DNA of 44,150 nt from a virus (Duplodnaviria; Heunggongvirae; Uroviricota; Caudoviricetes). The notes under the pieces are model-generated. The model was not told the origin of the DNA and ran no database searches. It saw only the letters and a list, made by a program, of their open reading frames with translations. This document shows, one piece after another, positions 2,276-36,170 of the stretch (position 1 is its first letter; each line of letters starts with the position of its first letter). Made by a program: the position numbers and the translations under genes. The DNA is taken from the IMG/VR virus record IMGVR_UViG_3300045988_030968, positions 1-44,150 of that record. The stretch is one strand, 5' to 3'.

Positions 2276-2280
2276 AACTA

Positions 2281-2441: not shown

Positions 2442-3874
2442 TTCTTACCTCGTCTCTTCATGTAATTAAGCAACTCTTCCTGTACCGATTTCTTCTCGTC
2501 GGTACGCGCGGCAACAACCTCGTCCAGCGTGTCTTTAGCGACGATATGATAGAGGAACACCGGGCGCTCGTGGCCCGCCTGTTTCTGGCGAACCGGGCCA
2601 ATACGCTCGACAACCTGCAAATAGTGCTCAAGGTTCCAGCCTTGCGAAATAAACGCCAGATGATGCCCGCCATCCTGTAAATTCAAACCGTGGCCCGCTG
2701 ACGCAGGGTGTACGCATAAGATTTCTATTTCACCGCGGTTCCACGCTTCCATCTGCTTATTACCTTTAGCGCCTTTGGCGAACGCCTGTGCCTGCGGGAA
2801 TCGCTTAAGAATACGCTCCAGTTCATGCTTAAACTGATAGGCTACCAGTAACGGTGCACCCTGTAACTCCTCGACAATTGACTCAAGCGCGTCCAGTTTC
2901 GTGTCGTGTACTTTCTCCCAGTCTTTCGTTGCTTCTCCGTCTGGCCCTGATACGTATACGGCACCGGATGCAATCTGCAAGCACTTAGACGTCTTCGCCG
3001 CAGCGTTAGCCGCTTCAACCTCCCCGCTTTCCAGTTCCGCGAATAGCTTCTCCTCCATATCGATGTATGCCTGACGTGCTTTCTTCGGCAGGTCGATTTC
3101 GACCGGTACAATAATCGGCGCTTCGCAGCCGAACCACTCGGCGGCGTCAATCGTGAGACTAATGTCTTTCATCCTCTGATGAATCTCATTATCCGCGCCC
3201 GGGCGTACCCGATACCTTCGTGCCATCGCAGATTTGCCTTCCTGTACCGAGTTAAACCAGCGGTCAGTGAATGCTGTGTACGAGGAACCGAGGCGCTCTC
3301 CTGCGTCGATAAACCAGTTCTGACCCCACAAGTCTTTGAGGCCATTCGGCGACGGCGTACCTGTCAGGTTGATGAAACGCTTAACCTTTCCAAATGCCAC
3401 TTTACTAAGTGCCTTTGCTCGCTTGCTACCGCCTGAACGGCTGCGGAAGGATTTAAGCTTCGTGCTCTCGTCGGCAACGATAACAGTAAAAGGCCAGTCG
3501 TCTTTGCCGTAGTAGTCAATCAGCCATTCGATAACTTCATAGTTGGTGCATACCACGTTAGCGTCAGACTCCAGCGCCGCGATGCGGCGCTTCTCTGAGC
3601 CGGTTGCATCGACGACACGCAGACACGGGAAACCCCATTTCTCTTGTTCTGCGGGCCACGTACCAGACGCAACACGCAGTGGGGCGAGGATTAACACGCG
3701 GTCGTCATCATTAAGTTGACCGTTGCGGAACAGTCGGTTAAGCACCCACATTGTCGACGAGGTCTTGCCGCCGCCCATACCGCACCAGATATTGCAACGT
3801 GGGTGCTGTAGCATAAACGACGTCATTATTTTCTGGTATTCGCGCCTTTGAAACTTAGACATGATTGGCCTCAT
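2438..3874 (-). CDS. SNF2-family (SF2) DNA helicase
   Basis: 478 aa; Walker A GMGGGKT, DExx box VADEST, C-terminal helicase motif QVVERIGPVRQ. Confidence 0.85.
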   Translation of the reverse strand: MRPIMSKFQRREYQKIMTSFMLQHPRCNIWCGMGGGKTSSTMWVLNRLFRNGQLNDDDRVLILAPLRVASGTWPAEQEKWGFPCLRVVDATGSEKRRIAALESDANVVCTNYEVIEWLIDYYGKDDWPFTVIVADESTKLKSFRSRSGGSKRAKALSKVAFGKVKRFINLTGTPSPNGLKDLWGQNWFIDAGERLGSSYTAFTDRWFNSVQEGKSAMARRYRVRPGADNEIHQRMKDISLTIDAAEWFGCEAPIIVPVEIDLPKKARQAYIDMEEKLFAELESGEVEAANAAAKTSKCLQIASGAVYVSGPDGEATKDWEKVHDTKLDALESIVEELQGAPLLVAYQFKHELERILKRFPQAQAFAKGAKGNKQMEAWNRGEIEILCVHPASAGHGLNLQDGGHHLAFISQGWNLEHYLQVVERIGPVRQKQAGHERPVFLYHIVAKDTLDEVVAARTDEKKSVQEELLNYMKRRGKK

Positions 3875-4538
3875 AAACTGCTTTTGCGAAACCCCGCGGG
3901 GTAAGGCTGCGGATTGTTTTTGTCCTCACCGATTTACCGCCTAATTTATTGTGTTGGTCAGAGTAACCGCCAACCACGGCGACACATGATTTAACAGGCA
4001 TCACAAAACCGTTACCCGCCCAAATACATGTCTTCTTAGGGTACGCGTCCCGCGGTTTTATGTATTCAGGGAACATTGGATGCGTGTCGTCTTCCGGTAA
4101 ATAGCCACCGTATTCGTATGGATTGAACGAGTAGTCAGGCTTACGCCATAAAGACGAAAGAACGCTAACCGGGTTCTCAATCATATAAGGTACGTTGTAC
4201 TTTTTAGCCAGACGCGCCGCCACTTTGCATGTAATTACGGCCTCTACCTGAAACGTGGGGTTCCTTCTCCGCTTCGTTTCGAAATGCGCAGCACCACTAA
4301 CGGCTAAATCTGTGCAAGGAGGGAACGCGAAAATAATATCCGGCACAACGTCGAAGTCGAATTTATTATCAATCCACGCGTTTGTATAGTGGATGTTCTC
4401 GTGTTCAACTTTTGCGCCCAATCGTGCGTAGTCTCCGTGGTCAGCACCGTCGTAGTTGAAACAATAGCAAGTATGGCCTGCTTCCGCCCACGGTTGGGCC
4501 ATAAGGCCCGAACCGTCAAACAATGACCAGACAATCAT
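3855..4538 (-). CDS. Short C5-cytosine methyltransferase-like protein (catalytic-domain motifs only)
   Basis: 227 aa; motif I LFDGSG, motif IV FPPC, motif VI ENPV in canonical order and spacing; overlaps helicase start by 20 nt. Confidence 0.45.
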   Translation of the reverse strand: MIVWSLFDGSGLMAQPWAEAGHTCYCFNYDGADHGDYARLGAKVEHENIHYTNAWIDNKFDFDVVPDIIFAFPPCTDLAVSGAAHFETKRRRNPTFQVEAVITCKVAARLAKKYNVPYMIENPVSVLSSLWRKPDYSFNPYEYGGYLPEDDTHPMFPEYIKPRDAYPKKTCIWAGNGFVMPVKSCVAVVGGYSDQHNKLGGKSVRTKTIRSLTPRGFAKAVYEANHV

Positions 4539-4726
4539 TTCAGCACCAGAACTAACTCTTTACGTCCGAACGCCGTAACGTTACCAGTTACATCTTCGAT
4601 AACCAGTTTACCGTTTGACTCGACGAAAACAGTATCAACGGCAACAGGACGACGTGTCTTAACGTTGAAAATCATGTCACCCGGTACGATGTCACGTGCT
4701 GGTTTGCGGTCATATTCGTGTTTCAT
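4535..4726 (-). CDS. Hypothetical protein (63 aa)
   Basis: Stop overlaps next start (ATGA); co-oriented in early operon. Confidence 0.5.
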   Translation of the reverse strand: MKHEYDRKPARDIVPGDMIFNVKTRRPVAVDTVFVESNGKLVIEDVTGNVTAFGRKELVLVLK

Positions 4727-4765
4727 TTCTCAATTCCTTATAGTTAAGGCCCCGAAGGGCCTGTA

Positions 4766-5020
4766 TTAGTTAGATAATTTGGCTTGAACTTGCTTAATAA
4801 GTTCTCCAGCCGTTGTGAAGTCTACAGACAGCCCTTTAGCGACGTCTTCCGCCAGCACCTTGCGGCCAACTGACCCGAAACCCAGGATACGGTTTACTTC
4901 CGAAACCTTCATAGACCATGAGTAATTGACTGACGCACCAGTGTATTTACAGATACGAACAGATGAATCGATTGAACCCATAACCATGGTGTTTACTGAC
5001 AGTTGAAGTTCGATAGCCAT
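4766..5020 (-). CDS. Hypothetical protein (84 aa)
   Basis: ATG 5020 preceded by AAGGAA; downstream of internal promoter at 5055-5083. Confidence 0.5.
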   Translation of the reverse strand: MAIELQLSVNTMVMGSIDSSVRICKYTGASVNYSWSMKVSEVNRILGFGSVGRKVLAEDVAKGLSVDFTTAGELIKQVQAKLSN

Positions 5021-5021
5021 T

Positions 5022-5336
5022 TTATAATTCCTTATATTGTTGGGGTATGTGCTTACTATAATAGTCCGCTATTAAGGTGTCAACCTGTTTAAACGAACCA
5101 ACGACAAAAACATCCGCACCGCGTTTACGCATCCGCTCGTGCTCTCGTAACTGGTGCGGGTCAGGCTTCGTATTTTCGTCTTTCTTAACTTCGACAAACC
5201 ATATGATGCCGCCGGGGAGAATTACCAGCAGGTCGGGAGCGCCGGAGCGCCCCTCGTACGACAGCTTACGAACTAGGCCCCCCAGGGCCTCGAACCTCTC
5301 TTTTGCATATTTCTGTACGCGGCCCTCTTTAGTCAT
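5022..5336 (-). CDS. VRR-NUC domain nuclease (PD-(D/E)xK)
   Basis: Motifs GAPDLLVILPGG and FVEVKKDENTKPDPHQLREHE; start set at ATG 5336 which overlaps upstream stop (ATGA). Confidence 0.7.
   Translation of the reverse strand: MTKEGRVQKYAKERFEALGGLVRKLSYEGRSGAPDLLVILPGGIIWFVEVKKDENTKPDPHQLREHERMRKRGADVFVVGSFKQVDTLIADYYSKHIPQQYKEL
5055..5083 (-). promoter_or_regulatory. Sigma70-type promoter with palindromic operator, embedded in 3' end of VRR-NUC CDS
   Basis: Minus strand TTGACA, 17-bp spacer, TATAGT; spacer contains TAATAG-N4-CTATTA. Confidence 0.5.
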
Positions 5337-5479
5337 GAGCGTAGGACCCAAGTAAGGAAAGCCCCTCCTAGAACGGCAACACCGACAAACTTAAAGAACA
5401 GGCCATAACAGAACATCGCGGCTATCCCCGCACCGAGCAACAGTGCGGACATGGTTACTATCGTCCAAAATACAAACAT
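5333..5479 (-). CDS. Small membrane protein (48 aa, two hydrophobic segments)
   Basis: MFVFWTIVTMSALLLGAGIAAMFCYGLFFKFVGVAVLGGAFLTWVLRS; stop overlaps VRR-NUC ATG. Confidence 0.4.
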   Translation of the reverse strand: MFVFWTIVTMSALLLGAGIAAMFCYGLFFKFVGVAVLGGAFLTWVLRS

Positions 5480-5481
5480 TG

Positions 5482-5676
5482 TCACAGCAAAGGCTCCGCG
5501 TCCGGGTTACGTAGGAAGTACGCTTGATAGATGTCGTGTTCTGAGTAGTAAACGCCTTTGTGTGTACACCCGGCGCAAGCATCACTAAAGAATCCATCGC
5601 CCATTACCATGATAAATTCCCATTCTGGCATATCCACCAACGCAGCTAGTTTCTTACTAAATGGTTTGTTACTCAT
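5482..5676 (-). CDS. Hypothetical protein (64 aa)
   Basis: Track ORF 5482..5685 trimmed to ATG 5676, which overlaps upstream stop (ATGA). Confidence 0.45.
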   Translation of the reverse strand: MSNKPFSKKLAALVDMPEWEFIMVMGDGFFSDACAGCTHKGVYYSEHDIYQAYFLRNPDAEPLL

Positions 5677-5762
5677 AACACGCACCCCTCACGTTTCGTA
5701 TGTTCAATACCGCAGCGCGGGCAGATTCGGCAGTCTTCTTCATAGAACCAGTAAATTTTCAT
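5673..5762 (-). CDS. Micro-ORF, zinc-ribbon-like (29 aa)
   Basis: MKIYWFYEEDCRICPRCGIEHTKREGCVL; ATGA overlaps on both sides. Confidence 0.3.
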   Translation of the reverse strand: MKIYWFYEEDCRICPRCGIEHTKREGCVL

Positions 5763-5890
5763 TCCAGAACCCACAGATAAATTGCGATGAACATGCCCAA
5801 TAAGGCAACCATCATGCCGTATTGACCCTCATGACAGTAGACACCAGCGGCGAATCCCGCCAGTACCGCAATAATCAGTTTACTTAGCAT
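5759..5890 (-). CDS. Small hydrophobic protein (43 aa)
   Basis: MLSKLIIAVLAGFAAGVYCHEGQYGMMVALLGMFIAIYLWVLE; start overlaps end of polymerase gene. Confidence 0.35.
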   Translation of the reverse strand: MLSKLIIAVLAGFAAGVYCHEGQYGMMVALLGMFIAIYLWVLE

Positions 5891-8153
5891 AACGGTACAC
5901 CTCTTCCCCAGCCCACGTTAACGGGAACCCTTCAGCCCATTCAGGTAATGAGCATAGCAGGTCGCCCATCTCTTTAACCGTGTACTCCGGCGTGTCTGGC
6001 GTTTCGGCGACACATTCGTCGTGTACGTGAAGCACAATTGGGTAGCCCGCTGCCTCGACCGTCAGCAGTCCGTTAACCAGTAAATCACGGCACAACGCCT
6101 GGATAATGTTTTCACACAATTTTCCGCCGTGTGTGTACAAAGTTGTCCACTGGCGGGTGGTCTGATTTTCGCCCTGGTATTTAATGCGAACGTTAGTTGT
6201 TACACGCCCGTCCTCGTCGGTCTCTTTAGTGACGCTTAAGCCTATACCAGGGTAGGACATGATGCGCCCCGACGGCAGCTCCACGCACAGCCACCAACCT
6301 GGCACAAAGTTACCCTGTCTGTCTTTCTCTTTAGTACGCCAGATGCGAATAGCTCTGTCGCCGTTGAGGCGGACTCTGGCCCCCGCCCAAAACTCTCGTC
6401 CTGGATTTCTGATTGCAGCAATCACCGAATCTTTAAGGTCGTTCCAGAATTTCACTGTTTCCGGATGGGCCTCACGCCACATGCGCTTGATAGCATCGCA
6501 AGTGCGCCAGACTTCTTTAGGCAGCACATAAGAGGCCCGTTCATCCTTTTTACCGGGTTTTGGAGGTCGCTTAGCCTCCTGGATCCGCGCCCATTCATAA
6601 CCTCGGGCAGTGGCGGCCCATATATGGTCAGGGAACGTTCCCCGCATTGTCTCCGTCATTTTAAAGAGGTCCAGCCCGTAAGTTTTAGCCATAGTCATGA
6701 AAGCTCCTACGCCGCCTTCGTAGCCGAGGCCAAGCTCGCAACATTTCCCGACCTGACGTAGGTCCTTACGGGTGGCTTTAAGCTCAATAGGATCCATACC
6801 AAACATCTCGCCCGCAGTGGCGCAATAAATATCAATCCCAGCGCGGAACGTCTCAAGGGCGGACGTCTCCCCCGCCGTCCAGGCTAACCCGCGCCCTTCC
6901 ACGTTTGAGTAGTCGGCAACGAGCAACTTATTGCCTTTTTCCGGGATGATGCAACTGCGGACAGTCGAGGCCGTTAGTTTAGATACATCGAAACGGCGAT
7001 GCGCCCGGCCCTTTAAAAGCAAATTGATGCCAAATGATAGCGGATTAAGCCTGCGGTTCCAGTCTTCATCGGACTCCCACGGCTGGCGTACAAGTTTCTT
7101 TTCCTCGTTAGTCGGGTCGTCGTGGTAGTACCCGCGCGACAGGTTCTGCGGTTGGAACCCTTTACCCGCAAATCGTAAAGTGCGCTTTGCCCCGCCGTAC
7201 TGGATGCAACCACGGCGTCGTCCGTCTTTGGACCGTCCTAGCAGGAGCGGTTTGTATTTTGTCGACGCCGTGGAGGCCGCGCCGAGGCGCATCTCAATGA
7301 TTGTGCGCGCATCGTCAGGTAAGTCGTCGTCCTCTAACAAACCTTCGAGCGTTGCTTTCTGCGCATTATAAATATTGTAGGCCGGTGCCAGTTCCCGAAG
7401 GATTGGCAGGAAATCTTTGCCCGTTAGTTTCCCGCCGAATTTCGCGCGGGCCTCGTTTTTTAGCTCTTGCTTGTGGCGTTCAACTGCCGCTACCGCCGCT
7501 TCAGCAAGCGCCGTGTCAACAAAGAAGCCTCGGTCGTTGATTAACTGGTCCAGTTCCAGTACACGGTCTTCGAACTCGGAGTTACCCCAACGCGGCAGCT
7601 TATGGAAGACTTCACGCATCGATGTGATGTCGCTAATACCGTACTTAATAAACCAGGCCCACTCGTCCGGGTGAGTTTCAGCAGTGTAACGGCGGATTTT
7701 GTAGTTCTTTGGCGTCGGTTTAGAAAAACGCTTAATCAGCGCCTTGCCGCGCTTATCCTTCGCATTGTCAGCAGACACGCCCAACACTTCGCACAATGCG
7801 TCAAGTGACCCTGGCAACGCGTGACGAAACGCCCAAATCATCGTATCAATGGTGTTGCTTACCGGGATATCAAAACCCCAGCAGTGCTTCATGATGAGCC
7901 TGTCGAACATTGAGCCGTTGTGCCACACCATCTTAATGCGACTGTTTGGCTTCACCAGACGGCGTAGTGCTCGGTGTAAACCCCCCGGCATGTCGCTGCC
8001 GTCGGTGCAATCCCACACCTGAACAGGCTCGTCGTCAAAAGCATAGGTACAGATAAGCACTTCGGTAGTAGGGTGTTCGGCGTAAGCGTAGGAACCGACT
8101 TTCTTTAAATCGGCTTCGGAGAATGTTTCAAAGTCTAAGAACAGGTAACTCAT
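5880..8153 (-). CDS. Family-A DNA polymerase with 3'-5' exonuclease domain
   Basis: 757 aa; exo motif FLDFETFS; pol motif A VADYSNVEGR, motif B RKDLRQVGKCCELGLGYEGG, motif C LHVHDE. Confidence 0.9.
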   Translation of the reverse strand: MSYLFLDFETFSEADLKKVGSYAYAEHPTTEVLICTYAFDDEPVQVWDCTDGSDMPGGLHRALRRLVKPNSRIKMVWHNGSMFDRLIMKHCWGFDIPVSNTIDTMIWAFRHALPGSLDALCEVLGVSADNAKDKRGKALIKRFSKPTPKNYKIRRYTAETHPDEWAWFIKYGISDITSMREVFHKLPRWGNSEFEDRVLELDQLINDRGFFVDTALAEAAVAAVERHKQELKNEARAKFGGKLTGKDFLPILRELAPAYNIYNAQKATLEGLLEDDDLPDDARTIIEMRLGAASTASTKYKPLLLGRSKDGRRRGCIQYGGAKRTLRFAGKGFQPQNLSRGYYHDDPTNEEKKLVRQPWESDEDWNRRLNPLSFGINLLLKGRAHRRFDVSKLTASTVRSCIIPEKGNKLLVADYSNVEGRGLAWTAGETSALETFRAGIDIYCATAGEMFGMDPIELKATRKDLRQVGKCCELGLGYEGGVGAFMTMAKTYGLDLFKMTETMRGTFPDHIWAATARGYEWARIQEAKRPPKPGKKDERASYVLPKEVWRTCDAIKRMWREAHPETVKFWNDLKDSVIAAIRNPGREFWAGARVRLNGDRAIRIWRTKEKDRQGNFVPGWWLCVELPSGRIMSYPGIGLSVTKETDEDGRVTTNVRIKYQGENQTTRQWTTLYTHGGKLCENIIQALCRDLLVNGLLTVEAAGYPIVLHVHDECVAETPDTPEYTVKEMGDLLCSLPEWAEGFPLTWAGEEVYRYAK

Positions 8154-8173
8154 TATTTTTGACCCTTAGTAAA

Positions 8174-8195
8174 AAGGCCCAATGAAGGGCCTTAG
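8174..8195 (-). terminator. Terminator/attenuator between SSB-like gene and DNA polymerase gene
   Basis: AAGGCCC-N5-GGGCCTT hairpin followed by T-run on minus strand. Confidence 0.4.
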
Positions 8196-8212
8196 TTAAA
8201 TTGATTCAGATA

Positions 8213-8839
8213 TTAACGGCGACGACGTTCGCGGCGCGGTGCTTCATCTTCTTCGTCGTCTTCCAGGTCATCGACACTTGCGGCAACTTTAGAACCGCCG
8301 AACGCTTTACCCTCGCCAACGTATTTAATTGCCAACAGGTTAACGCCGAGGACTTTATATTTCTGGCTGAACCAGATTTCAACGCTTACGTTAGCGACGC
8401 ATCCGCTGTAAACCTGTTCACCTTCAATCTGTTCGCCGTCTACGTTGAAGTCCTGCTCTACCTGAGTCTCACCTTTTTTAGAGGTTACAATCAGCGGCTG
8501 TTTCTGTGCCTTCGCTTTGAAGTAGAAGCCTTCCGGGAAGTCTTCAAACGGATTGTCGCGCTCAGCAATGTCTTTAATAGCGCATTTATCCATATGCTTG
8601 CCTTCGCCGTAGTTTGACTTCATCCACTTCTCGGCAGCGGCTGCACCTAATGCTTCTTCAACTACCGCGTAAACAGTGTCGTAGAGTGCATCGATTTGAG
8701 CGTGGTCAGACGGCAGGATAATCGTTGCGCTGTACTGACCTTTAGTGATTGAGCCATCATCGTTTTCACGGTCTTTTTCGCGTTCAAATACGTTAACCCA
8801 TGCAGTGTTTACTTTACGCAGATTCAGTTTAATACCCAT
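8213..8839 (-). CDS. DUF2815-type single-stranded DNA-binding protein
   Basis: 208 aa; pattern NPFEDFPEGFYFKAKAQKQPLIV and YSGCVANVSVEIWFSQKY; acidic DDLEDDEEDE segment near C-terminus. Confidence 0.65.
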   Translation of the reverse strand: MGIKLNLRKVNTAWVNVFEREKDRENDDGSITKGQYSATIILPSDHAQIDALYDTVYAVVEEALGAAAAEKWMKSNYGEGKHMDKCAIKDIAERDNPFEDFPEGFYFKAKAQKQPLIVTSKKGETQVEQDFNVDGEQIEGEQVYSGCVANVSVEIWFSQKYKVLGVNLLAIKYVGEGKAFGGSKVAASVDDLEDDEEDEAPRRERRRR

Positions 8840-8892
8840 CGTGATTTCTCGCTTTTCAGTTTACTCCGGGAAGCTGCCCGGCCAGTGATTTA

Positions 8893-8922
8893 ACTATAAT
8901 AGTTTGCTATTCAGGATGTCAA
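8893..8922 (-). promoter_or_regulatory. Sigma70-type promoter with palindromic operator, upstream of SSB-like gene
   Basis: Minus strand TTGACA, 17-18 bp spacer, TATAGT; spacer contains TGAATAG-N4-CTATTA. Confidence 0.5.
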
Positions 8923-8926
8923 CACT

Positions 8927-10174
8927 TTATTCCAAATCTTCTTCACTAACCTGATTCCACTCAGGACGTTTGTCATCTGCTGTTGTTACGCATGGCGCGC
9001 CTGGCTTACGGGTAATGAAGTCTTTCAGTTCTTCTTCCGGCACAACTTTAACAGCTTCGGTCGGCGTCATGAGCACTTCTTTAGTCAGCTTGTCGCCGTA
9101 GAGTTCTGCTACTTTCTCCGCATCTTTCCACGCACGATTTCCAGGACGACCCTCAACCAGCTTGTACCCAGGAACTTTCTTACCGGAATGCAATGCGGTA
9201 GCCATCGCTTTCTCAACCTTATCGATGTGCTGGCGCAACAACGGCAACTTCTCATACTCGGCTACAAGTTGCTCTGGTGTCAGTTCCAGTGCAAAATCGT
9301 CCTCCAGTTCTTCCGCCAGTACCGCGTTAACGGTTTTTGTACGCGCGGCGCACTGTTCGGAGAACCGACACCACTGGCAACCATCTACTGACGGCTTGAA
9401 GTCCGACGCTTTCAGGTTCTTCTTGCCACGGAAATACGCATCAAGGGCCATCAGTGCCCGTTTCTGCGCGAACTTAGCGAACAGTTCCAGACCTTCAACC
9501 GAGATGTCCCACTCCGATGCACTGCCAGCGTACGGCTGGAAGATGACAAGACGCACAACTGTGATGTTATAGCGTCTCTTGAGTCGGCGATAAACACCAA
9601 GAGCGTAAAGCATAAGCTGCTTGTTTTCTTTCGCTTCGACACGATGTCGTCCTGTTTTCAGGTCGCCGATGATAAGCATCGCTGAGTTACTTTCGCCCGT
9701 AAAGCCTTCTATAACAGCCACTAAGTCGGCGGTTCCGAACGTCTCAACACCTTCATAGCCAGGATGCAATACCTCAGTAAGATTGACGCGCATTTCCAGC
9801 TTAGCGTAAGTCGCTACGTCGATAATCGCTTTGCAGTAGTCGGTATATTTGCGCACCTGTTCAATCATGTCCGCCGTAATCAGTACCGCACCTTTCATCG
9901 GGCTTATTAGCGCCTTAATCTGACCTTTACCCTCATCCAGAACATACGCACCTACTTCACGTTCTAACGGCAGCGCAGTGCCTTTGATGTACTGGTTAAG
10001 GTGCACCTCCGCTATGGTGTGCATAGCTGTACCCAATACGGCGGCTTTACCCGACGTATTAGGGATATCTTTTTCACAAGCCAGTGATGCCGCACAGCTT
10101 AGCCACTTTTTAGCGCCTGACGGCGACAGTAAGGCGTGCACATCGTTATTGCCACCGCGTTCCTTTAAAATCAT
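8927..10174 (-). CDS. DUF2800 / Cas4-like PD-(D/E)xK exonuclease
   Basis: Motifs IGDLKTGR and QLMLYA; C-terminal Cys cluster CQWCRFSEQC; start set at ATG 10174 (ATGA overlap). Confidence 0.7.
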   Translation of the reverse strand: MILKERGGNNDVHALLSPSGAKKWLSCAASLACEKDIPNTSGKAAVLGTAMHTIAEVHLNQYIKGTALPLEREVGAYVLDEGKGQIKALISPMKGAVLITADMIEQVRKYTDYCKAIIDVATYAKLEMRVNLTEVLHPGYEGVETFGTADLVAVIEGFTGESNSAMLIIGDLKTGRHRVEAKENKQLMLYALGVYRRLKRRYNITVVRLVIFQPYAGSASEWDISVEGLELFAKFAQKRALMALDAYFRGKKNLKASDFKPSVDGCQWCRFSEQCAARTKTVNAVLAEELEDDFALELTPEQLVAEYEKLPLLRQHIDKVEKAMATALHSGKKVPGYKLVEGRPGNRAWKDAEKVAELYGDKLTKEVLMTPTEAVKVVPEEELKDFITRKPGAPCVTTADDKRPEWNQVSEEDLE

Positions 10175-10443
10175 ACCCTGTTCTCCCACTGGTCAATTAA
10201 ATGTCGTGTCTGGTGATGGCAATGCATAGCCCACCCATACATCGACTCGAAGACATAAAAGTCGGGTTTGGCGAAAGTTGTGCGCTTAATATGCGACACG
10301 TGACGGCCTATATCTTTAGGCCGCGGTACTTTTCCTAAGTACGCCATCTCTTCCATCTGATGCGCACCGGACGGCGCACGTAACAGCCATAGCGCCTCTG
10401 TGTTATCTCGCCTGTCTACAGCGCGGTAGAGTTGGTAAATCAT
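10171..10443 (-). CDS. Hypothetical protein (90 aa)
   Basis: ATG 10443 overlaps upstream stop (ATGA); track ORF 10171..10560 trimmed. Confidence 0.45.
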   Translation of the reverse strand: MIYQLYRAVDRRDNTEALWLLRAPSGAHQMEEMAYLGKVPRPKDIGRHVSHIKRTTFAKPDFYVFESMYGWAMHCHHQTRHLIDQWENRV

Positions 10444-10817
10444 TGCGCCTTCTCCTGCATTTTCAGAAAGACAATCATAGCGGCGTGAAGGGGGTTTTCG
10501 TGCGTACTTTCGGTGAAAGATGCAGAGTGATACGCGCGATATGTTAACGTACGCCGGCATTCAATTGATATATGATTGCGGGTGATAATTCGCCACGCAA
10601 TGTCTATGTTGTTGCACGGGTTAAATAAATTACCATTAGAAGGCCTAAAACCTTTAACAAAAGGCATTCTTGTTTGCCACACTGGACCCATGTCCGAATC
10701 ATCAGTATCACTATCAAAGTCATCGACGCCAGATGGAAAGAACAAATGCTCATTCAAATCTAATGCGACTGCCACCGCACAATTAATTTCAAAATCGCTC
10801 ATATCTTCATATTTCAT
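10440..10817 (-). CDS. Hypothetical protein (125 aa)
   Basis: ORF with ATG start downstream of acidic-protein gene terminator. Confidence 0.5.
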   Translation of the reverse strand: MKYEDMSDFEINCAVAVALDLNEHLFFPSGVDDFDSDTDDSDMGPVWQTRMPFVKGFRPSNGNLFNPCNNIDIAWRIITRNHISIECRRTLTYRAYHSASFTESTHENPLHAAMIVFLKMQEKAQ

Positions 10818-10837
10818 ATTTCCGACCCTCAGTTAAA

Positions 10838-10856
10838 GCGGCCCGAAGGCCGCGGG
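10838..10856 (-). terminator. Terminator-like hairpin after acidic-protein gene
   Basis: GCGGCC-CGAA-GGCCGC hairpin followed by TTTAACT on minus strand. Confidence 0.4.
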
Positions 10857-10860
10857 ATAG

Positions 10861-11328
10861 TTATTCTTCCTCGAAATATTTATTCTTGATTGCCGTCAGG
10901 CGTTCCAGGTACTCAGCCAGGTCTTCGTCTTTAATTGCGGCAATCTTCATCTTCTTACCGGTGAACTCTTCCAGCAGTTCATCGGAATCATCGCACGCGG
11001 CATCGCTCGGACCTTCGTTAATCGCATCATCAATAGCCTGAATCTGGTCACGAAGAGACTGATAATCGACTTCTTCTTCCTTCGCTTCTTCCGGTTCTGG
11101 CGTCGGTTCCTCTACTTTAGCTTTACGCGGCTTGCGTTTCGGCTTCTCTTCTTCTTCTGCCGGTTTGGTGTCAACGATGTCTTCACCTTCAACCGGGATT
11201 TCTTTTGTTGCAACAGTAGGTGTGATTGTTGCAGTTTCAGCAACGACAACTTGTTTCGCGCTGTTCGCAGCAATCAGTTCGTGCGCAACTACGAAACGTT
11301 CCAGTAATTTTAAGAATTGGTCTAACAT
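10861..11328 (-). CDS. Highly acidic protein with central basic patch, hypothetical
   Basis: 155 aa; long Glu/Asp runs around KPKRKPRKAK. Confidence 0.55.
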   Translation of the reverse strand: MLDQFLKLLERFVVAHELIAANSAKQVVVAETATITPTVATKEIPVEGEDIVDTKPAEEEEKPKRKPRKAKVEEPTPEPEEAKEEEVDYQSLRDQIQAIDDAINEGPSDAACDDSDELLEEFTGKKMKIAAIKDEDLAEYLERLTAIKNKYFEEE

Positions 11329-11352
11329 TATTTGTTCTCCTGTTTATTTAGG

Positions 11353-11580
11353 TTACTCGCCGTCGCCTTCTGTAAGGCTATCATCTATTAATTCAAATTT
11401 ACCGTTTTGGTGTTGAATTGCTTCTTGCCCACAATGGTCGCAAACCACCAGTTTATCGAATCCGTCAAACTCGTCTCCGACTACACAAGAAAGTACAAAC
11501 TTATGTTTTGTGCACACTTCCTGCGATTCACCGAAAATTGCTCGAAAACCTTTAGCTATGACTCCAGTGATTGTGTTCAT
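11353..11580 (-). CDS. Small Cys-containing protein (possible zinc binding), hypothetical
   Basis: 75 aa; CDHCGQ plus upstream Cys; first gene after promoter 11609-11638. Confidence 0.5.
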   Translation of the reverse strand: MNTITGVIAKGFRAIFGESQEVCTKHKFVLSCVVGDEFDGFDKLVVCDHCGQEAIQHQNGKFELIDDSLTEGDGE

Positions 11581-11608
11581 ATCTGCCTCTCTCGTTTGGT
11601 ATGTGCTA

Positions 11609-11638
11609 ACTATAATAGCGAACTATTCATGATGTCAA
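11609..11638 (-). promoter_or_regulatory. Sigma70-type promoter with palindromic operator, divergent from HTH gene
   Basis: Minus strand TTGACA, 17-18 bp spacer, TATAGT; spacer contains TGAATAG-N4-CTATTA. Confidence 0.5.
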
Positions 11639-11702
11639 TGGGCTTTTATTAAATAATTAATATGGTACTATTCACATATCAACTGACTAAGGAGTAATTG
11701 AC

Positions 11703-11918
11703 ATGCAACCATCTGAACTAGGCATCCGTGTAGAACAACGCCGTAAAGAACTTGGCATCTCACAGCGCCGTCTGGCTGTCCTTGCCGGCGTTTCTCAGGG
11801 CGCGATTAACCAGCTGGCACTTGGGGTAACTCAGGACGTCCGACCGGCGACGCTGTTTAAACTGGCGGAGGTGCTTGAAGTAGATGCCAAGTGGCTGGCG
11901 TTCGGTGAAGGGGCTTAA
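11703..11918 (+). CDS. Cro/XRE-family helix-turn-helix transcriptional regulator
   Basis: 71 aa; LGISQRRLAVLAGVSQGAINQLALG HTH; AAGGAG 8 nt before ATG; preceded by TGgTACTAT extended -10. Confidence 0.8.
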   Translation: MQPSELGIRVEQRRKELGISQRRLAVLAGVSQGAINQLALGVTQDVRPATLFKLAEVLEVDAKWLAFGEGA

Positions 11919-11933
11919 CGCCCCTTTCTTTTT
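11908..11933 (+). terminator. Rho-independent terminator after HTH gene
   Basis: GGGGC-TTAAC-GCCCC hairpin (stop codon in loop) followed by TTTCTTTTT. Confidence 0.6.
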
Positions 11934-11935
11934 AC

Positions 11936-14197
11936 CTATTCCAAATCCTCCTCTGTCACCGTTAGCATTTCATTCGGTTCATATATTGTCTTCGGAATCT
12001 TGTTATCGTTTATACCCCACGGCAACCGGTATTGCTTAGGGATCGGCCTGTTGTTGTTATCCAGCCCCGAGACTATAACCCCAGCCTCGTGCATCTCTTC
12101 CAGTTTCTTTCGAAGGTCGTTATTAGCGTTAATCGGCACACCATAACTATCTTCTTTCGCCGCTTTGACGATAGCGGACATAGAAAACCCTCGCTTGTCG
12201 TCGCCCTGCTCCTGCAATTTACCTAATGCGTAAATAACCGTAGCCTCTTTGGTGTCCAGTTTCTCGAACTGGCCTACCTTTTCTTTAACGGCTTCCTTCT
12301 GTTCGTCGGTCATACCTTCTACTTTCTTCACGAAGACAGAGAAGGCGTTAAAGTTAACAAAGACATCGATGTGCGGATTTCCCGCGTCAAAATCACGGAC
12401 ATCATCACTACTATACCCTTCCGGAAGCCCCATGAAGTTGTGAGTTGGTTCTTTCTTTTCCGGTGGCTCCGCTATCTGAATCTTCTGTATTACGAATCCT
12501 CTGGCTTTCTGCCGTTCTCCGTTTCTGTTCTTTATGTGGTACAGGTTTATCTCTAAGTTATTGTCGTTGTCCGGCTTATGGAGAAACATCCCGTTATCGA
12601 TGGAGTTGTGAAAATCGCTACCACCCTTCGGCATCATGCCGTTTTCAGATGGCACAGTTTCGTCGATGTTTTTAGTCGGGTGCACCATAGCGCCTACCGC
12701 AGCGTTAAGCGTCGACGCTATTTCGTTAAGCGCCTGTGCCGCTTCTTTCATCGACCTGTTGTCGTTCTCATCGAAGCCTGGTATGCAAGTTTGCAGGGTA
12801 TCAAACGTAACCTTTACAATTTTCTCTTCACCGGCAACACGGCGCATCATTCTCACCGCCTGGCGTCGCCATGCTTCATCAAGTAAATTACACCCATCGG
12901 CGACACAATCGATAATGTGCAAGCGGTCAAGGTTATCACCGAGGGCGATTTGCAAAGACTTTTTATGTCGTTCGAACGACTGTGCGCCTTCGCCGGCGAA
13001 AATGAACGCGTGTCCTTCTGCGACCTCTGCCCCGCCGAACGCATATCTTTTTTCAGCGGCTATAGCAGCATCAATAGCCATACTAAATGTTGACTTACCG
13101 GTATGTGACTTTGCGCAAATATAAAACGATTCATTAGTCTGCATAAGGCCATCTACGACGGAGTAAGCAGGTTCTTTTTCAACTTCCGGCTCGTCTTCAA
13201 GGTCTTCCAGCGTGCAAGTTACGGGCTCTTCGTTCTCTGTGCGGTGCAATTCCTCAATCTCTTCGTCAGGTAAATCAGGCAGAGCCGCGCGAATGCTGTT
13301 AATACTGATAGGTTGCTTGTCTACGTTAAGCTCGTCCGGAAGACCGCACATACGCAGGGCCAAATGTTGTCGGCGGTTAAGCTCGGTACAAGCACCGTTG
13401 TTTGTGTGCTGGCACACGAAGCGCACTTCTTTACCATCAAGCATGATGCTGGTGGAGCCTTTGCCTGTGTGCAGGTGTTCGTTAGGGCAAGGCACTTCAT
13501 ACCCGCGCCCAGAAGATAAAGCGTCAAGTCCGAGCTCGGCTTCGCAGAAATGCGCTATATCTGCGTTAAGCCCGTGCTCATCGGCGGCAAGCGTCTTAGC
13601 TTCGCGTTTACGCAACCCCATCTCTTCGGCTTTCTTGATGTATCGCTCGGCACGGATAACATGCCCTTCTGTAACCGTTATCTTCGACTCTTTATGTGGC
13701 AGGTAGATAAGGCGGTTGCCGTCTTCTGTGCAGTGGTCACGCAATGCCTCGTCTATTTCTAACTCAGCACAAATAGCACGTTGCACCATCCACGCGTCGT
13801 TAGAGTTAAACGGCGTGCGAGCTGGAACCAGAACGCGGAATGCGTAATCCCCGTTTTTACACGCGTGCTGGTGCGACGCCGTTGTGTGCAGGATATTGAA
13901 GAACGGCGCATTCTTGAATTTGCGTGTCAGGTCGCGATACTGTGTACGGTTGAGATGGTCGAAGTCGAACTTAACCACACTGTCTTCCAGAATCGCGTTT
14001 TTACGGCGACCGCCAACGGGGGCAATAGCCTTCTGCTTAATCTTGGCTGCGTCGTACTCTTCCTTAGTCCATGACGGGTCCACGGATAAACGCTTCGATG
14101 TATCGCAGACATACTCTACAAACTGCTCCAGCGGCATTTCACGCGCTACAGGGTTTTTATCGAATGTGTTACGCAGCGTTGCAAAAACAATATTCAT
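11936..14197 (-). CDS. Primase-helicase (AEP-type primase domain, zinc-binding region, P-loop NTPase)
   Basis: 753 aa; KFDFDHL acidic motif; Cys/His cluster CPNEHLH...CQHTNNGAC; Walker A AKSHTGKST. Confidence 0.65.
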   Translation of the reverse strand: MNIVFATLRNTFDKNPVAREMPLEQFVEYVCDTSKRLSVDPSWTKEEYDAAKIKQKAIAPVGGRRKNAILEDSVVKFDFDHLNRTQYRDLTRKFKNAPFFNILHTTASHQHACKNGDYAFRVLVPARTPFNSNDAWMVQRAICAELEIDEALRDHCTEDGNRLIYLPHKESKITVTEGHVIRAERYIKKAEEMGLRKREAKTLAADEHGLNADIAHFCEAELGLDALSSGRGYEVPCPNEHLHTGKGSTSIMLDGKEVRFVCQHTNNGACTELNRRQHLALRMCGLPDELNVDKQPISINSIRAALPDLPDEEIEELHRTENEEPVTCTLEDLEDEPEVEKEPAYSVVDGLMQTNESFYICAKSHTGKSTFSMAIDAAIAAEKRYAFGGAEVAEGHAFIFAGEGAQSFERHKKSLQIALGDNLDRLHIIDCVADGCNLLDEAWRRQAVRMMRRVAGEEKIVKVTFDTLQTCIPGFDENDNRSMKEAAQALNEIASTLNAAVGAMVHPTKNIDETVPSENGMMPKGGSDFHNSIDNGMFLHKPDNDNNLEINLYHIKNRNGERQKARGFVIQKIQIAEPPEKKEPTHNFMGLPEGYSSDDVRDFDAGNPHIDVFVNFNAFSVFVKKVEGMTDEQKEAVKEKVGQFEKLDTKEATVIYALGKLQEQGDDKRGFSMSAIVKAAKEDSYGVPINANNDLRKKLEEMHEAGVIVSGLDNNNRPIPKQYRLPWGINDNKIPKTIYEPNEMLTVTEEDLE

Positions 14198-14322: not shown

Positions 14323-14390
14323 TGTATAATCCTTGCGCTTACTTTGATGGTTTGTACTTTAGCCCCGACGTTCTGGCGTTGGGGTTTCTT

Positions 14391-14603
14391 TTACTTAACG
14401 CCAGCAATCCACGCACGCTCTGAAGTGTAGAAACGACACTTACTTAACGACTCGATTGGCATCTTAATAATCCGTGTTGTCCCTGAAAAATAATCAGGTT
14501 TGCATATTTCTGCGTAGAAACCGCTGTCAGTAATTTCTGATGCAAACTTAAACCGGTATTTAACTTTACCGTTTTCAAAGTAACAACCCATACGTCCAAT
14601 CAT
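14391..14603 (-). CDS. Hypothetical protein (70 aa)
   Basis: ORF with ATG start, overlaps upstream gene stop. Confidence 0.5.
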   Translation of the reverse strand: MIGRMGCYFENGKVKYRFKFASEITDSGFYAEICKPDYFSGTTRIIKMPIESLSKCRFYTSERAWIAGVK

Positions 14604-14782
14604 TTCACGTTCTCCTTAATCCACGCTTCAACTTTATTACGGTCAAATGTACCAGGTAAACGGCGACCCATAACCTTAATACAACAGTCAGGGAATTTAC
14701 CACTGCGTAACCAGTTATTAATTGTCTGACGTGTCACCCCGATACGCTCGGCTACTTCATTCTGCGTCATGTAATGTTGCAT
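14600..14782 (-). CDS. Small HTH DNA-binding protein (AlpA/excisionase-like fold)
   Basis: Start set at ATG 14782 with AGGAG upstream; MTQNEVAERIGVTRQTINNWLRSGKFP. Confidence 0.55.
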   Translation of the reverse strand: MQHYMTQNEVAERIGVTRQTINNWLRSGKFPDCCIKVMGRRLPGTFDRNKVEAWIKENVK

Positions 14783-14889
14783 TTTTATATCTCCTGTTTG
14801 TTTGGTGAAGCTGAGTATAGGATAGCTGGAATGTAAAAGCAACCAAAACACCACACAAAGTTACTAAGATACAAAAGATGCTACCGGTA

Positions 14890-15140: not shown

Positions 15141-15186
15141 CTATATCATTAAACGAAAGAATCACAACGGCAACGTAACTATTCTC

Positions 15187-15215
15187 TTGCACACCCCAAC
15201 ATAATAGGATACTAT
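15187..15215 (+). promoter_or_regulatory. Conserved promoter, copy D1 (TTGCAC-17-TACTAT with AATAG-N4-CTATT operator)
   Basis: 33-bp element repeated at 16599, 27238(-) and 36138(-); about 35 nt upstream of ATG 15250. Confidence 0.5.
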
Positions 15216-15249
15216 TCACTTATTGAAACAAGACAGAGGGGTGAGGGTT

Positions 15250-16409: not shown

Positions 16410-16619
16410 ATGATTACTAGAGAACAGGCTGAACGACTAATCGCGTTAATCGACACGATGGTTGATGTAAAAACCGATTCAGCAACGGCAACAGAGGAAC
16501 TCGCTACTTGGTCGCTTGAAGAAAGAGAAGCAGAAGCGGAGCGCGAGTTACTGGCGTTCATCGACTCTATCACACACACACACACAAATAAAATTTACTT
16601 GCACGCTAAGATAGAATAG
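16410..16619 (+). CDS. Hypothetical small protein
   Basis: 69 aa; contains (CA)8 tract near 3' end. Confidence 0.5.
   Translation: MITREQAERLIALIDTMVDVKTDSATATEELATWSLEEREAEAERELLAFIDSITHTHTNKIYLHAKIE
16571..16586. repeat. (CA)8 dinucleotide microsatellite
   Basis: CACACACACACACACA encoding THTHT at the C-terminus of ORF 16410..16619. Confidence 0.9.
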
Positions 16620-16627
16620 GCTACTAT
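16599..16627 (+). promoter_or_regulatory. Conserved promoter, copy D2 (TTGCAC-17-TACTAT)
   Basis: TTGCACgctaagATAGAATAGGcTACTATTCA matches D1 pattern; about 32 nt upstream of ATG 16659. Confidence 0.45.
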
Positions 16628-16658
16628 TCATTTACACAAACGAGAGGAGAGACAGAAG

Positions 16659-16787
16659 ATGAAAGACTATAGCGAAGTAACTTTGGGTGAGTTGCAGGAC
16701 GAGTACGAAGATATGCTCTACCCGTTCATCTGCGACGGAGATTACAACGGCGTCTATAACGGAGTGAGCGAAGAATATGAACAGTAA
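16659..16787 (+). CDS. Hypothetical micro-protein (42 aa)
   Basis: GAGGAGAGA RBS then ATG; overlaps next start. Confidence 0.35.
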   Translation: MKDYSEVTLGELQDEYEDMLYPFICDGDYNGVYNGVSEEYEQ

Positions 16788-19579: not shown

Positions 19580-19599
19580 CTATCCTATGTAATGACTAG

Positions 19600-19628
19600 T
19601 TGACTATTACTTACGACCCTACTATATT
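19600..19628 (+). promoter_or_regulatory. Sigma70-type promoter
   Basis: TTGACT, 17-bp spacer, TATATT; about 34 nt upstream of ATG 19662. Confidence 0.5.
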
Positions 19629-26904: not shown

Positions 26905-26933
26905 AAGGCCCCTTCCGGGGCCTTAGTTTTATT
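26905..26933. terminator. Bidirectional terminator
   Basis: AAGGCCCC-TTCC-GGGGCCTT with T-runs on both strands; overlaps stop of minus-strand gene. Confidence 0.6.
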
Positions 26934-27213
26934 GCTTTCCTAATGCTTTCTTGATCGCGCTGTTTGCCAGATTTAATGGATGGTCTTCATGGCAATCCTC
27001 GGGAGATACCGCGCAAACATCCTCAACGTAATCGCGAAGCTGGCGAAGTGCTTCAAGTAACTCTGGTGCAGAGGAAATAAGTTTTGTGTTAGCCAATTTT
27101 ACTGAGTCCTTTTCCCTCATACTCATTACCTCCGCCACATAAACATCACCCGCCCAGATAGCAGTTCCGCGATTAACCCATGCACCGTCTGTACCTTTAA
27201 ATTCGTGTGTCAT
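26929..27213 (-). CDS. Reverse-oriented accessory (moron) gene, hypothetical 94-aa protein
   Basis: ATG 27213 with AGGAG upstream; own promoter (27238-27270) and terminator; opposite to flanking structural genes. Confidence 0.6.
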   Translation of the reverse strand: MTHEFKGTDGAWVNRGTAIWAGDVYVAEVMSMREKDSVKLANTKLISSAPELLEALRQLRDYVEDVCAVSPEDCHEDHPLNLANSAIKKALGKQ

Positions 27214-27237: not shown

Positions 27238-27270
27238 CTGAATAGTACCCTATTATGTTGGGGTGTGCAA
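27238..27270 (-). promoter_or_regulatory. Conserved promoter, copy E (minus-strand TTGCAC-17-TACTAT)
   Basis: Reverse complement matches D1 at about 30 of 33 positions. Confidence 0.5.
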
Positions 27271-34525: not shown

Positions 34526-34754
34526 ACTCATCAATATTGCTTCGATACTCCCGTAACTTCTCCAGACTTTCAATTGCTTCTGCTAAGTCGGTCCCGGTGT
34601 CCTTGTGGCCGCGCAAGCCCATACACAATAGCTTCTTCAATGCGTGCTGTAGCGCCGGGTCGCGGATATCGAAGGCGCGTAGCACGTCATAAACGTCTAC
34701 TGCCATAGTGCTGCCGTGAGTGTTTGTCATTGTGCGGTTATATTTTGAAGTCAT
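34524..34754 (-). CDS. Hypothetical small protein, last gene of reverse-oriented cassette
   Basis: 76 aa; ATG overlaps upstream stop (ATGA). Confidence 0.5.
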   Translation of the reverse strand: MTSKYNRTMTNTHGSTMAVDVYDVLRAFDIRDPALQHALKKLLCMGLRGHKDTGTDLAEAIESLEKLREYRSNIDE

Positions 34755-35881
34755 CCCAGCATCTCCGGTGAAATAGTTAAACGTGCGACCTCGCCGTATT
34801 CGGCGCTATAAGTAATTACGTTTGCACTGCGGCCTGACATCCATCCGCCGCGGGAGGCGTAGGCGTCTTTAGCCGCTAAGGTGCGGTGTTGCTCAACAAT
34901 CATGTTACGGCTTTCTACAATCTTCTGGTGATGCAGGTGGCCTACGTGAGCGTAGCTGTACTCGCTTTCCCCGAATGCTTTTCTGAACTTAGATATCATA
35001 ATTGGTTCGACCACCTCAAACCGACATTTATGACCATGTGTGAAGAACAGCGTCGTTTTGCCGTGGCGCACCATCTTGTACACATCCGGCGACGTATCAA
35101 CGAACACACGCGGCTCGTTGTCATACAGCGTACTGAACATCTCCGCTAACCAAATCATACCCGATTCGTCGTGGTTTCCTTGCACGATAAGCAAGCGAAC
35201 ATTTTTATGCTTAACCAGAGCCATATCAACAACACGGCGCACCATACGAATCATGTAGCGCACCAGTTTCTGATAGCGGGTGTCCGCATCAAGAATATGA
35301 CCACTCGCTGGCGTAACGGCATCAAGACTATCGAAGTGCGCGAGGTCGCCAAGCAGGTTAATAACCCCAGTTCCCGCGTCCGGTGCTTTCTGAAATGCAG
35401 CATCGAACCAGCGAGAAAACAGGTCTTCAGCAATCTTCATATCCCAGTCGTCGCCGCTTTCATCGGCCCAGGCCAGCATACCGAGATGGAAATCAGATAC
35501 CGTGTAAAGATTGAGTAGTTTATCGTCGCGTTTAGCCCGAATGGCTTTAACAGGAGCAACGGGGGTAATCTCCGACTTCATCCCTTCGATTACGGCTTTC
35601 ATCAACTCTACCTGACGTTCGGCATCGGTGTCGGTCTTAACCCATTGCAGCTTAGTGTTGCCGAACTCGTCCACAAGTGACGACGTGCCTTTAATCTTGT
35701 AGCCGTCTGGTACAAGGTGACTAACGTCGCGCCCGTGGCCCACGCCTTTCTTTGCCAGCTTCGCTTTACGGATACGAATAACGCGGTCTGAGATGCCGTA
35801 TTTACGGGCGATATCGATATTCTTCATCCCGGCGTTCAATTCTTCCTGTAACTGTTCGTCGGTTATTTTCTTCTGGGCCAT
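34751..35881 (-). CDS. HTH-containing calcineurin-like metallophosphoesterase
   Basis: 376 aa; N-terminal HTH KNIDIARKYGISDRVIRIRKAKL; phosphoesterase motifs DFH, GDLAHFD, GNHDE, THGH, GHLHH. Confidence 0.6.
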   Translation of the reverse strand: MAQKKITDEQLQEELNAGMKNIDIARKYGISDRVIRIRKAKLAKKGVGHGRDVSHLVPDGYKIKGTSSLVDEFGNTKLQWVKTDTDAERQVELMKAVIEGMKSEITPVAPVKAIRAKRDDKLLNLYTVSDFHLGMLAWADESGDDWDMKIAEDLFSRWFDAAFQKAPDAGTGVINLLGDLAHFDSLDAVTPASGHILDADTRYQKLVRYMIRMVRRVVDMALVKHKNVRLLIVQGNHDESGMIWLAEMFSTLYDNEPRVFVDTSPDVYKMVRHGKTTLFFTHGHKCRFEVVEPIMISKFRKAFGESEYSYAHVGHLHHQKIVESRNMIVEQHRTLAAKDAYASRGGWMSGRSANVITYSAEYGEVARLTISPEMLG

Positions 35882-35919: not shown

Positions 35920-36111
35920 TCACTTCTCGTTAACATTCGAGTTGCACGCCCAGATTAAAATAAAGACCCACGGCAGCAGAACCCAACCAAGAAACAGATT
36001 AGCCGTGAATATCGCCAACTTCGCTTTATGGTTGCGGAAATACGCAACCAGGAAAGGCGCGAAATAAGCGAGAAGTGCAAACAGAATTAAGGAAACTGGT
36101 AAACTGGACAT
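35920..36111 (-). CDS. Superinfection immunity protein (T4 Imm-like small membrane protein)
   Basis: Start at ATG 36111 after AAGGGG; LILFALLAYFAPFLVAYFRNHKAKLAIFTANLFLGWVLLPWVFILIW matches Imm-family pattern. Confidence 0.6.
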   Translation of the reverse strand: MSSLPVSLILFALLAYFAPFLVAYFRNHKAKLAIFTANLFLGWVLLPWVFILIWACNSNVNEK

Positions 36112-36137
36112 TTTAAACCCCTTCATTGTTGGTGTAA

Positions 36138-36170
36138 GTGAATAGTACCCTATTATATTGGGGTGTGCAA
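36138..36170 (-). promoter_or_regulatory. Conserved promoter, copy F (minus-strand TTGCAC-17-TACTAT)
   Basis: Differs from copy E at 2 of 33 positions. Confidence 0.5.

Follow-up and report, generated by a model that had tools for sequence, protein, structure and literature searches.

The 44,150-nt window analysed here (positions 1 to 44,150 of IMG/VR record IMGVR_UViG_3300045988_030968) is a Kagunavirus-type genome, that of a virulent siphophage of the Guernseyvirinae, and our subject is a palindromic element, the dyad AATAG-N4-CTATT, which recurs in the core of its predicted early promoters, together with a small Cro-like protein of the phage that is a candidate for binding it. Bases 4500-12500 are 84-91% identical to the E. 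coli Kagunavirus phages SZH-1, Golestan and K1ind, and the remaining sequence of the window matched the same Kagunavirus group. The gene layout is typical of the Guernseyvirinae, with the replication genes pointing leftward and the small Cro-like gene rightward, continued by small genes and by lysis and structural genes in the rightward direction, with a few leftward islands. Scans of the window for tRNAs and Rfam families gave zero matches. Comparisons drew on five genomes from GenBank and on 80 loci surrounding Cro homologues in IMG/VR; conservation alignments were anchored outside the dyad, and those of the second promoter class described below on the -35 side. Phages of the genera Kagunavirus and Jerseyvirus are often isolated for use against E. 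coli and Salmonella.

Three leftward promoters, P1 to P3 (class A), were found at exactly the positions given by the initial annotation, each with TTGACA and TATAGT hexamers at a spacing of 17-18 bp. P1 (5055..5083, minus strand) has TTGACA at 5083..5078, a 17-bp spacer and TATAGT at 5060..5055, with the candidate operator AATAGCGGACTATT at 5073..5060 and a predicted start near 5048, and it precedes an 84-aa gene (4766..5020) followed by a 63-aa open reading frame (ORF), a methyltransferase-like ORF and an SNF2 helicase. P2 (8893..8922, minus strand) has TTGACA at 8922..8917, an 18-bp spacer and TATAGT at 8898..8893, carries the candidate operator AATAGCAAACTATT at 8911..8898 with a predicted start near 8886, and precedes the genes for the single-stranded DNA-binding protein (ssb, 8213..8839) and the DNA polymerase (5880..8153). 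P3 (11609..11638, minus strand), which is divergent from cro, combines TTGACA at 11638..11633 and TATAGT at 11614..11609 with an 18-bp spacer; its candidate operator AATAGTTCGCTATT lies at 11627..11614, its predicted start near 11602, and the genes behind it are the ORFs 11353..11580 and 10861..11328 and a DUF2800/PD-(D/E)XK exonuclease gene (8927..10189). With 11/12 consensus matches, these are the three top-scoring sigma-70-like sites in bases 1-20000. The dyad fills the spacer, from about -25 to -12, so that its final T is also the first T of the -10 hexamer. AATAG-N4-CTATT is present in all three spacers as had been claimed, but AATAG is preceded by T, G and G, making the variable position G/T and not G/A. 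Likewise, the view that the leftward replication genes use three promoters sharing a palindromic element holds for the element but leaves out the helicase-primase gene (11936..14197), which has no recognisable operator-bearing promoter and whose operon has no dyad upstream.

The 5' leader of the single-stranded DNA-binding protein gene contains a hairpin, CACTGGCCGGGCAGCTTCCCGG (8860-8885, minus strand), that, unlike its sequence surroundings, is conserved across the groups of Kagunavirus, Jerseyvirus, Cornellvirus and phiEap-2 and may serve translation or stability.

Four further promoters, of TTGCAC type (class B), carry the full dyad, at 15203, 16615, 27241 and 36141, confirming that they have the half-site in common with class A. 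PB1 (15187..15216, plus strand) consists of TTGCAC at 15187-15192, 17 bp and TACTAT at 15210-15215, with the candidate operator AATAGGATACTATT at 15203-15216 and a predicted start near 15222, and precedes a 62-aa gene from 15250. PB2 (16599..16628, plus strand) has TTGCAC at 16599-16604 and, after 17 bp, TACTAT at 16622-16627; its candidate operator AATAGGCTACTATT at 16615-16628 and predicted start near 16634 precede the ORF 16659..16787 and later genes. On the minus strand, PB3 (27241..27270; TTGCAC 27270..27265, 17 bp, TACTAT 27247..27242; candidate operator 27254..27241; predicted start near 27235) precedes a 94-aa gene (26929..27213), and PB4 (36141..36170; TTGCAC 36170..36165, 17 bp, TACTAT 36147..36142; candidate operator 36154..36141; predicted start near 36135) precedes a superinfection-immunity gene (35920..36126, or with its start at 36111) and a 376-aa ORF (34751..35881). 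In this class the dyad overlaps the -10 hexamer TACTAT, from about -19 to -6, with the right half-site inside the -10.

The promoter of cro itself follows the class B register. Its candidate operator AATATGGTACTATT (11659..11672, plus strand; predicted start near 11678) has one mismatch, its -10 TACTAT (11666-11671) is preceded by TGG (11663-11665) as an extended -10 (TGGTACTAT), and it has no good -35; the mismatched T is the base that creates the TG of the extended -10, and this one-mismatch dyad is invariant in 36 related loci. Two dyads, at 11614-11627 and 11659-11672, both retained in the 36 loci, thus bracket the 122-bp cro intergenic region. Downstream of all eight sites an ATG in the transcribed direction lies 14-53 nt from the site (or its -10), and most start codons 3' of exact dyads are preceded by a Shine-Dalgarno-like purine run. 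A possible ninth, weaker operator, ACTAGTTGACTATT (19595-19608; element 19595..19628, plus strand), has one mismatch and overlaps the -35 of a promoter (TTGACT, 17 bp, TATATT) located after a T-run terminator; it is conserved in Kagunavirus loci and takes the form AATAGTTGACTAGT in Jerseyvirus, with the single mismatches on opposite halves.

Some further features were seen beside these sites. A short (CA)8 run (16571-16586) lies immediately 5' of PB2. The first genes after P1, P3 and PB2 (4766..5020, 11353..11580 and 16659..16787) are mosaic, with homologues in 6-7 of the fetched loci, and the promoters themselves are conserved in nearly all loci, forming fixed junctions beside swappable genes. 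Several other Kagunavirus loci (L007-L041) have an extra exact dyad, caggtcAATAG(G/C/T)TTACTATTtgg, after GGTGTAACAGG repeats; it is absent from the window, has no obvious -35 and may lie within a coding region.

The window holds seven exact copies of AATAG-N4-CTATT, against 0.01 expected from shuffles, and 11 copies with at most one mismatch, against 1.03 expected. In contrast, the half-site GAATAG/CTATTC alone occurs 21 times where 17.9 ± 4.2 are expected, so that the check proposed by the initial annotation, the frequency of the half-site, gives no enrichment; because the non-random signal is the dyad arrangement, the half-site count is misleading as a refutation test. Beyond the window, the dyad ranks first among 5-N4-5 palindromes in every Kagunavirus locus fetched and first or joint first in all Jerseyvirus-type loci but one. 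In Jerseyvirus SP-101 it is found at the homologous promoters, with five exact copies against 0.05 expected, and in phiEap-2 the form AATAG-N4-[CG]TATT occupies four sites at homologous promoters, against 0.10 expected. The Cornellvirus phages SP-031 and St162, which infect Salmonella, a host also of Jerseyvirus, have the palindrome TATTA[GC]-N4-[GC]TAATA instead, and one metagenomic relative has AATAC-N4-GTATT.

In 48 loci of Kagunavirus and Jerseyvirus the half-sites hardly vary, and the central bases and flanks drift. At the ssb promoter (P2), 32 Kagunavirus loci show 2/320 changes in the half-sites and 12/128 in the central N4, and at the cro-divergent promoter (P3) the respective numbers are 0/360 and 17/144 in 36 loci; the bases between the -35 and the dyad are variable. 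The PB1-type sites (35 loci) have 4/350 half-site changes, with 9/70 at central positions 1-2 and 1/70 at positions 3-4, and the PB2-type sites (27 loci) have 3/270, 8/54 and 0/54, respectively. The fixed central positions 3-4 (TA) of class B are expected if they are the -12/-11 bases of TACTAT. As judged from these alignments, the pattern is the signature of a dimeric protein predicted to read the outer bases at either end of a 14-bp site but not the middle. Promoter function alone does not explain why the left half-site is invariant, since it sits in the spacer, a part of the promoter unread by RNA polymerase.

This last point bears on the idea that there is no dedicated phage regulator and that the dyad is a promoter cassette, either favoured by RNA polymerase or a host protein or copied by recombination. 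Such a cassette would suit the overlap of the right half-site with the -10 in both classes, the TATAAT that class A reads on its reverse strand, the retention of TATTATAGT-like -10 regions even in groups without a clear dyad, and the combination of mosaic downstream genes with conserved promoters. However, it does not explain why the left half-site is invariant in a stretch unread by sigma-70 while the bases on either side drift, nor why all sites switched their outer base together between Kagunavirus and Jerseyvirus; moreover, the eight sites share only their half-sites and not their flanks or central bases, which argues against recent copies. In addition, Jerseyvirus and Cornellvirus have different palindromes in the same host. 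Altogether we regard a cassette as quite improbable. The difference between phages of one host also makes a phage protein the simplest choice for the binding factor and a site for a host factor unlikely, and we know of no E. coli regulator with an AATAG-N4-CTATT consensus.

Among the proteins encoded in the window, the best candidate is the 71-aa Cro-like HTH_3 protein (11703..11918, plus strand; an intrinsic terminator follows at 11907-11927), which would bind the operator as a dimer. It matches Pfam HTH_3 with E = 2e-12, and its best match among PDB sequences is 434 Cro (E = 5e-7), which also has 71 aa. About 560 Guernseyvirinae genomes carry a homologue. A single-sequence AF2 model of the protein (pLDDT 84) has five helices, and its top Foldseek matches are 2cro (TM 0.73-0.79), the 434 repressor domain and the 3cro complex of Cro with OR1; in the structural alignment the protein and 434 Cro are ~38-41% identical. 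The operators of phage 434 are 14-bp dyads of the form ACAA-N6-TTGT. As a control, 12 fetched homologues with a 434-like recognition helix adjoin 14-bp ACAA-N6-TTGT sites; most of these loci have the sites 35 and 62 bp ahead of cro. Perfect-palindrome scans around more distant Cro groups (recognition helices GLSQSALSF and GWSQGCFGH) gave no clear multi-copy operator. The Gln that opens the recognition helix is invariant in six aligned Cro proteins, and the outermost operator base, the A of AATAG, is present in all variants observed; by analogy with the 434 structures, the two may be linked. Furthermore, the outer base before AATAG is T in 78/78 Jerseyvirus half-sites and G at most unconstrained Kagunavirus half-sites, a split that tracks the type of the Cro recognition helix (QGAINQ versus QSLITH). 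Taking this evidence together, we put the probability that the dyad is the operator of the phage's own 71-aa 434-Cro-like protein at roughly 0.6.

Several observations weigh against this assignment. Identity between the Cro proteins of Kagunavirus and Jerseyvirus is only ~51%, with differences at 4/6 recognition-helix positions, yet the AATAG core is shared, and because the two genera represent a single evolutionary split, the covariation of outer base and helix has an effective n of 1 and is weak. The class B hexamers are weak (8/12 matches, under the threshold of the consensus scan), although their register is conserved nonetheless, and at the ssb promoter the left half-site is degenerate in Cornellvirus and phiEap-2. 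The two remaining points favour another protein of the phage, a small excisionase-like DNA-binding protein of the HTH_17 family (14600..14854, minus strand; ~56-84 aa, with Pfam and PHROG matches that cover the HTH region only). This excisionase/AlpA-like protein might bind the dyad instead, being made first and then switching the dyad promoters on or off as a 'middle' class. The strict dyad is found only in Kagunavirus and Jerseyvirus, the two groups that have HTH_17; the domain was undetected in the other Guernseyvirinae-type Cro groups, with two loci of the 434-like group marginal (39% identity, E = 0.005). In the RNA-seq of the Kagunavirus phage K1B4, the only such time-course and a coarse, gene-level one, an HTH gene is among the four earliest genes; this earliest HTH-domain gene, 008, may by gene order be HTH_17 rather than Cro, the order 004, 005 (AAA domain), 008 fitting the former. 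The HTH_17 gene also has no AATAG dyad upstream, in keeping with a protein made ahead of the dyad promoters.

Nevertheless, phiEap-2 keeps the dyad at homologous promoters while having no detectable HTH_17 homologue. The outer base differs between Kagunavirus and Jerseyvirus although the HTH_17 helix is identical (11 Kagunavirus loci), and conversely several HTH_17 helix variants exist within Kagunavirus, where the operator is common to all. A site in the core promoter would be an unusual position for an activator, and activation of the MerR style needs spacers of 19-20 bp whereas those present here are 17-18 bp; a long spacer and a dimerisation or effector domain, the marks of the MerR type, were both not seen, the HTH_17 matches being limited to the HTH region. 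Small Xis/AlpA-type proteins, moreover, usually bind direct repeats and not 14-bp dyads, which counts against HTH_17 as well. We therefore consider binding by HTH_17 unlikely and keep the Cro-like protein as the preferred binder.

As the initial annotation had it, promoter P1 falls inside the final 20 codons of the VRR-NUC ORF (5022..5351), and the overlap is conserved in related phages. The VRR_NUC Pfam match of the ORF is under the curated cut-off (E = 9e-4, 19.7 versus 23.8 bits), and its homologue in Golestan is annotated as a Holliday junction resolvase. The encoded C-terminus ends in KQ VDT LIA DYY SKHIPQQYKEL: the codons GTT GAC give the -35, (C/T)TA ATA G gives the left half-site, and later codons ending TAT TAT AGT give the right half-site and the -10. 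In the majority of relatives from Kagunavirus and Jerseyvirus the stop comes directly after TATAGT, and the window has a 10-codon read-through. More distant relatives end in QVDxLVKELFP and have no promoter there, indicating that the promoter arose inside an existing C-terminal segment and that the protein became L-I-x-x-Y-Y-S. All but one of the listed Kagunavirus/Jerseyvirus variants keep the rare ATA codon, the codon over the centre of the dyad may specify N, D, S, G or H, and at one locus a synonymous TAT-to-TAC change breaks the site. A constraint on the DNA accounts for this pattern, since it would force the rare ATA codon and fix the residues L-I..Y-Y-S while leaving the codon over the uncontacted centre free. 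P1 is thereby a clean example of a promoter and operator evolving within a coding sequence.

At least eight non-structural transcription units are predicted to start at host sigma-70 promoters, each with AATAG-N4-CTATT in its core. If the Cro-like protein is the binder, a Cro dimer would place one recognition helix on each half-site and leave the central 4 bp uncontacted. The bound dimer would block RNA polymerase: with the dyad inside the core promoter in both classes, occlusion, and with it repression, appears the natural reading. The dyad on its own promoter suggests that Cro is autoregulated, and accumulating Cro would turn down its own gene and all other operator-bearing units together, making the circuit a Cro-style early turn-down without a CI partner. 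We infer that the promoters fire, that Cro binds them and that binding represses. A single dimeric regulator of most of the genome, as first proposed, is borne out only in part. A dimeric, phage-encoded regulator is the best reading, with the Cro-like protein as its best candidate, but 'most' goes too far: as estimated from the positions of ORFs and terminators, the eight units with an operator take up ~16 of the 44 kb, roughly one third, and exclude the helicase-primase operon and the structural genes.

More tentatively, and at somewhat less than even odds, we propose that a strictly virulent subfamily kept a 434-type Cro without CI and that its operator spread into every early or middle promoter core, one of them carved into the C-terminal helix of a nuclease gene. 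One autoregulated repressor would then act as a global early-to-late switch, and the operator would have evolved together with the helix from genus to genus (GAATAG in Kagunavirus, TAATAG in Jerseyvirus, AATAC/ATTAG elsewhere).

The closest known system is the Cro protein of phage 434 with its OR and OL operators (also the Cro proteins of lambda and P22). Both involve a 71-aa, five-helix HTH_3 protein and 14-bp dyads that overlap promoters and have conserved outer and free central bases, with one site on the cro promoter and a second on that of the divergent gene, which in the window encodes a 75-aa protein; the likely role is also the same, the turn-down of early transcription in lytic growth. 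Unlike in phage 434, neither a CI repressor nor an integrase is annotated in the relatives examined here, and the Golestan authors reported no lysogeny genes (PMC7203180). The cro region of the window, furthermore, has two operators 45 bp apart and not three in tandem, the half-site is AATAG and not ACAA, and the operators are dispersed over at least eight promoters genome-wide. In phage P1, a single phage repressor, C1, acts at an operator scattered over many promoters, whose operons co-respond, in a manner similar to that proposed here; however, the operators of phage P1 are asymmetric and 17 bp long, C1 is large and unrelated, and the phage is temperate. The C proteins of restriction-modification systems (C.AhdI, C.BclI), which are among the Foldseek matches, are likewise small XRE-family dimers that bind palindromes at their own promoter and act as timing switches, but their action is confined to a single locus, includes activation as well as repression, and is coupled to a restriction gene; no such gene was identified in the window.

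The repeat itself has been reported before. In phage fBC-Eco01 an identical PHIRE motif (consensus tgAATAGTa-ccTATTat-T; e.g., TGAATAGTACCCTATTATAT) was listed in seven copies, PP1-PP7, as 'Phage RNAP promoter' (PMC9825357), and the Golestan report gives seven PHIRE promoters (PMC7203180). The fBC-Eco01 label implies a promoter for a phage-encoded RNA polymerase, an explanation to which we give hardly any credence, since the motif sits within ordinary -35/-10 promoters and no gene for such an enzyme is listed in the fully annotated relatives. A scan of ten large ORFs of the window, the six longest included, found no RNA polymerase domain. The fBC-Eco01 paper did not note the dyad symmetry, the sigma-70 register or a link to Cro, and assigned the motif to an RNA polymerase that these phages lack. 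Within an incomplete literature coverage we found no paper proposing the operator/Cro reading, and in the literature searched no experimental characterisation of gene regulation in Kagunavirus or Jerseyvirus. Thus the repeat is already known and the mechanism is textbook, and the assignment of Cro and its operator is what is new for this phage group. If true, it corrects the published annotation of 'phage RNAP promoters', maps at least eight promoters and their predicted starts, names a candidate regulator, and offers, with one operator and one repressor, a simple engineering handle.

A second repeated element has to be separated from the dyad. The initial annotation had seen the half-site recur near 27321-27336 and 28083-28110, but these are not operator copies; they are part of GGAATA/GAATAAnTTATTC clusters beside rightward promoters. 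The GGAATA repeats lie at 27285-27322 and 28069-28105 (clustered regions 27285-27336 and 28069-28113), immediately ahead of two rightward promoters, at 27337 (TTGACT) and 28114 (TTGACA). The 13-bp palindrome GAATAAnTTATTC is exact at 28101-28113, where it abuts TTGACA, and has one mismatch at 27318; its centre is near -41.5 relative to the 28114 promoter, a classic activator position. GGAATA/GAATAAnTTATTC is conserved in four of the four other Guernseyvirinae checked (SP-101, SP-031, St162 and phiEap-2), and since it is kept where the early-promoter palindromes differ or are relaxed (Cornellvirus, phiEap-2), it is a separate element. It is probably concerned with late regulation and is a candidate late-gene control site.

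The rightward promoter at 27337 opens one of two paralogous units of ~200 nt on the plus strand (14890-15125 and 27337-27570), each with its own promoter (TTGACT, 17 bp, TAAGCT, with TGG before) and an intrinsic terminator. The two are near-identical over the promoter and the first ~60 transcribed nt and 75% identical over the first ~110 nt, and the unit at 27337-27570 is 96% identical in Jerseyvirus SP-101. Their RNA folds have z-scores of -2.7 and -1.7 and a long hairpin in common, with an inner stem that differs in sequence, and neither unit has an Rfam match; they may be a phage family of small RNAs or leaders. On the minus strand, the conserved block of both units additionally shows TTCACA, 18 bp, CATATT, and it may be a bidirectional promoter. 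Finally, the same bidirectional terminator, AAGGCCCC-N4-GGGGCCTT, is present at three gene junctions (2280-2299, 26905-26924 and 34501-34520), with a related copy near 8175.

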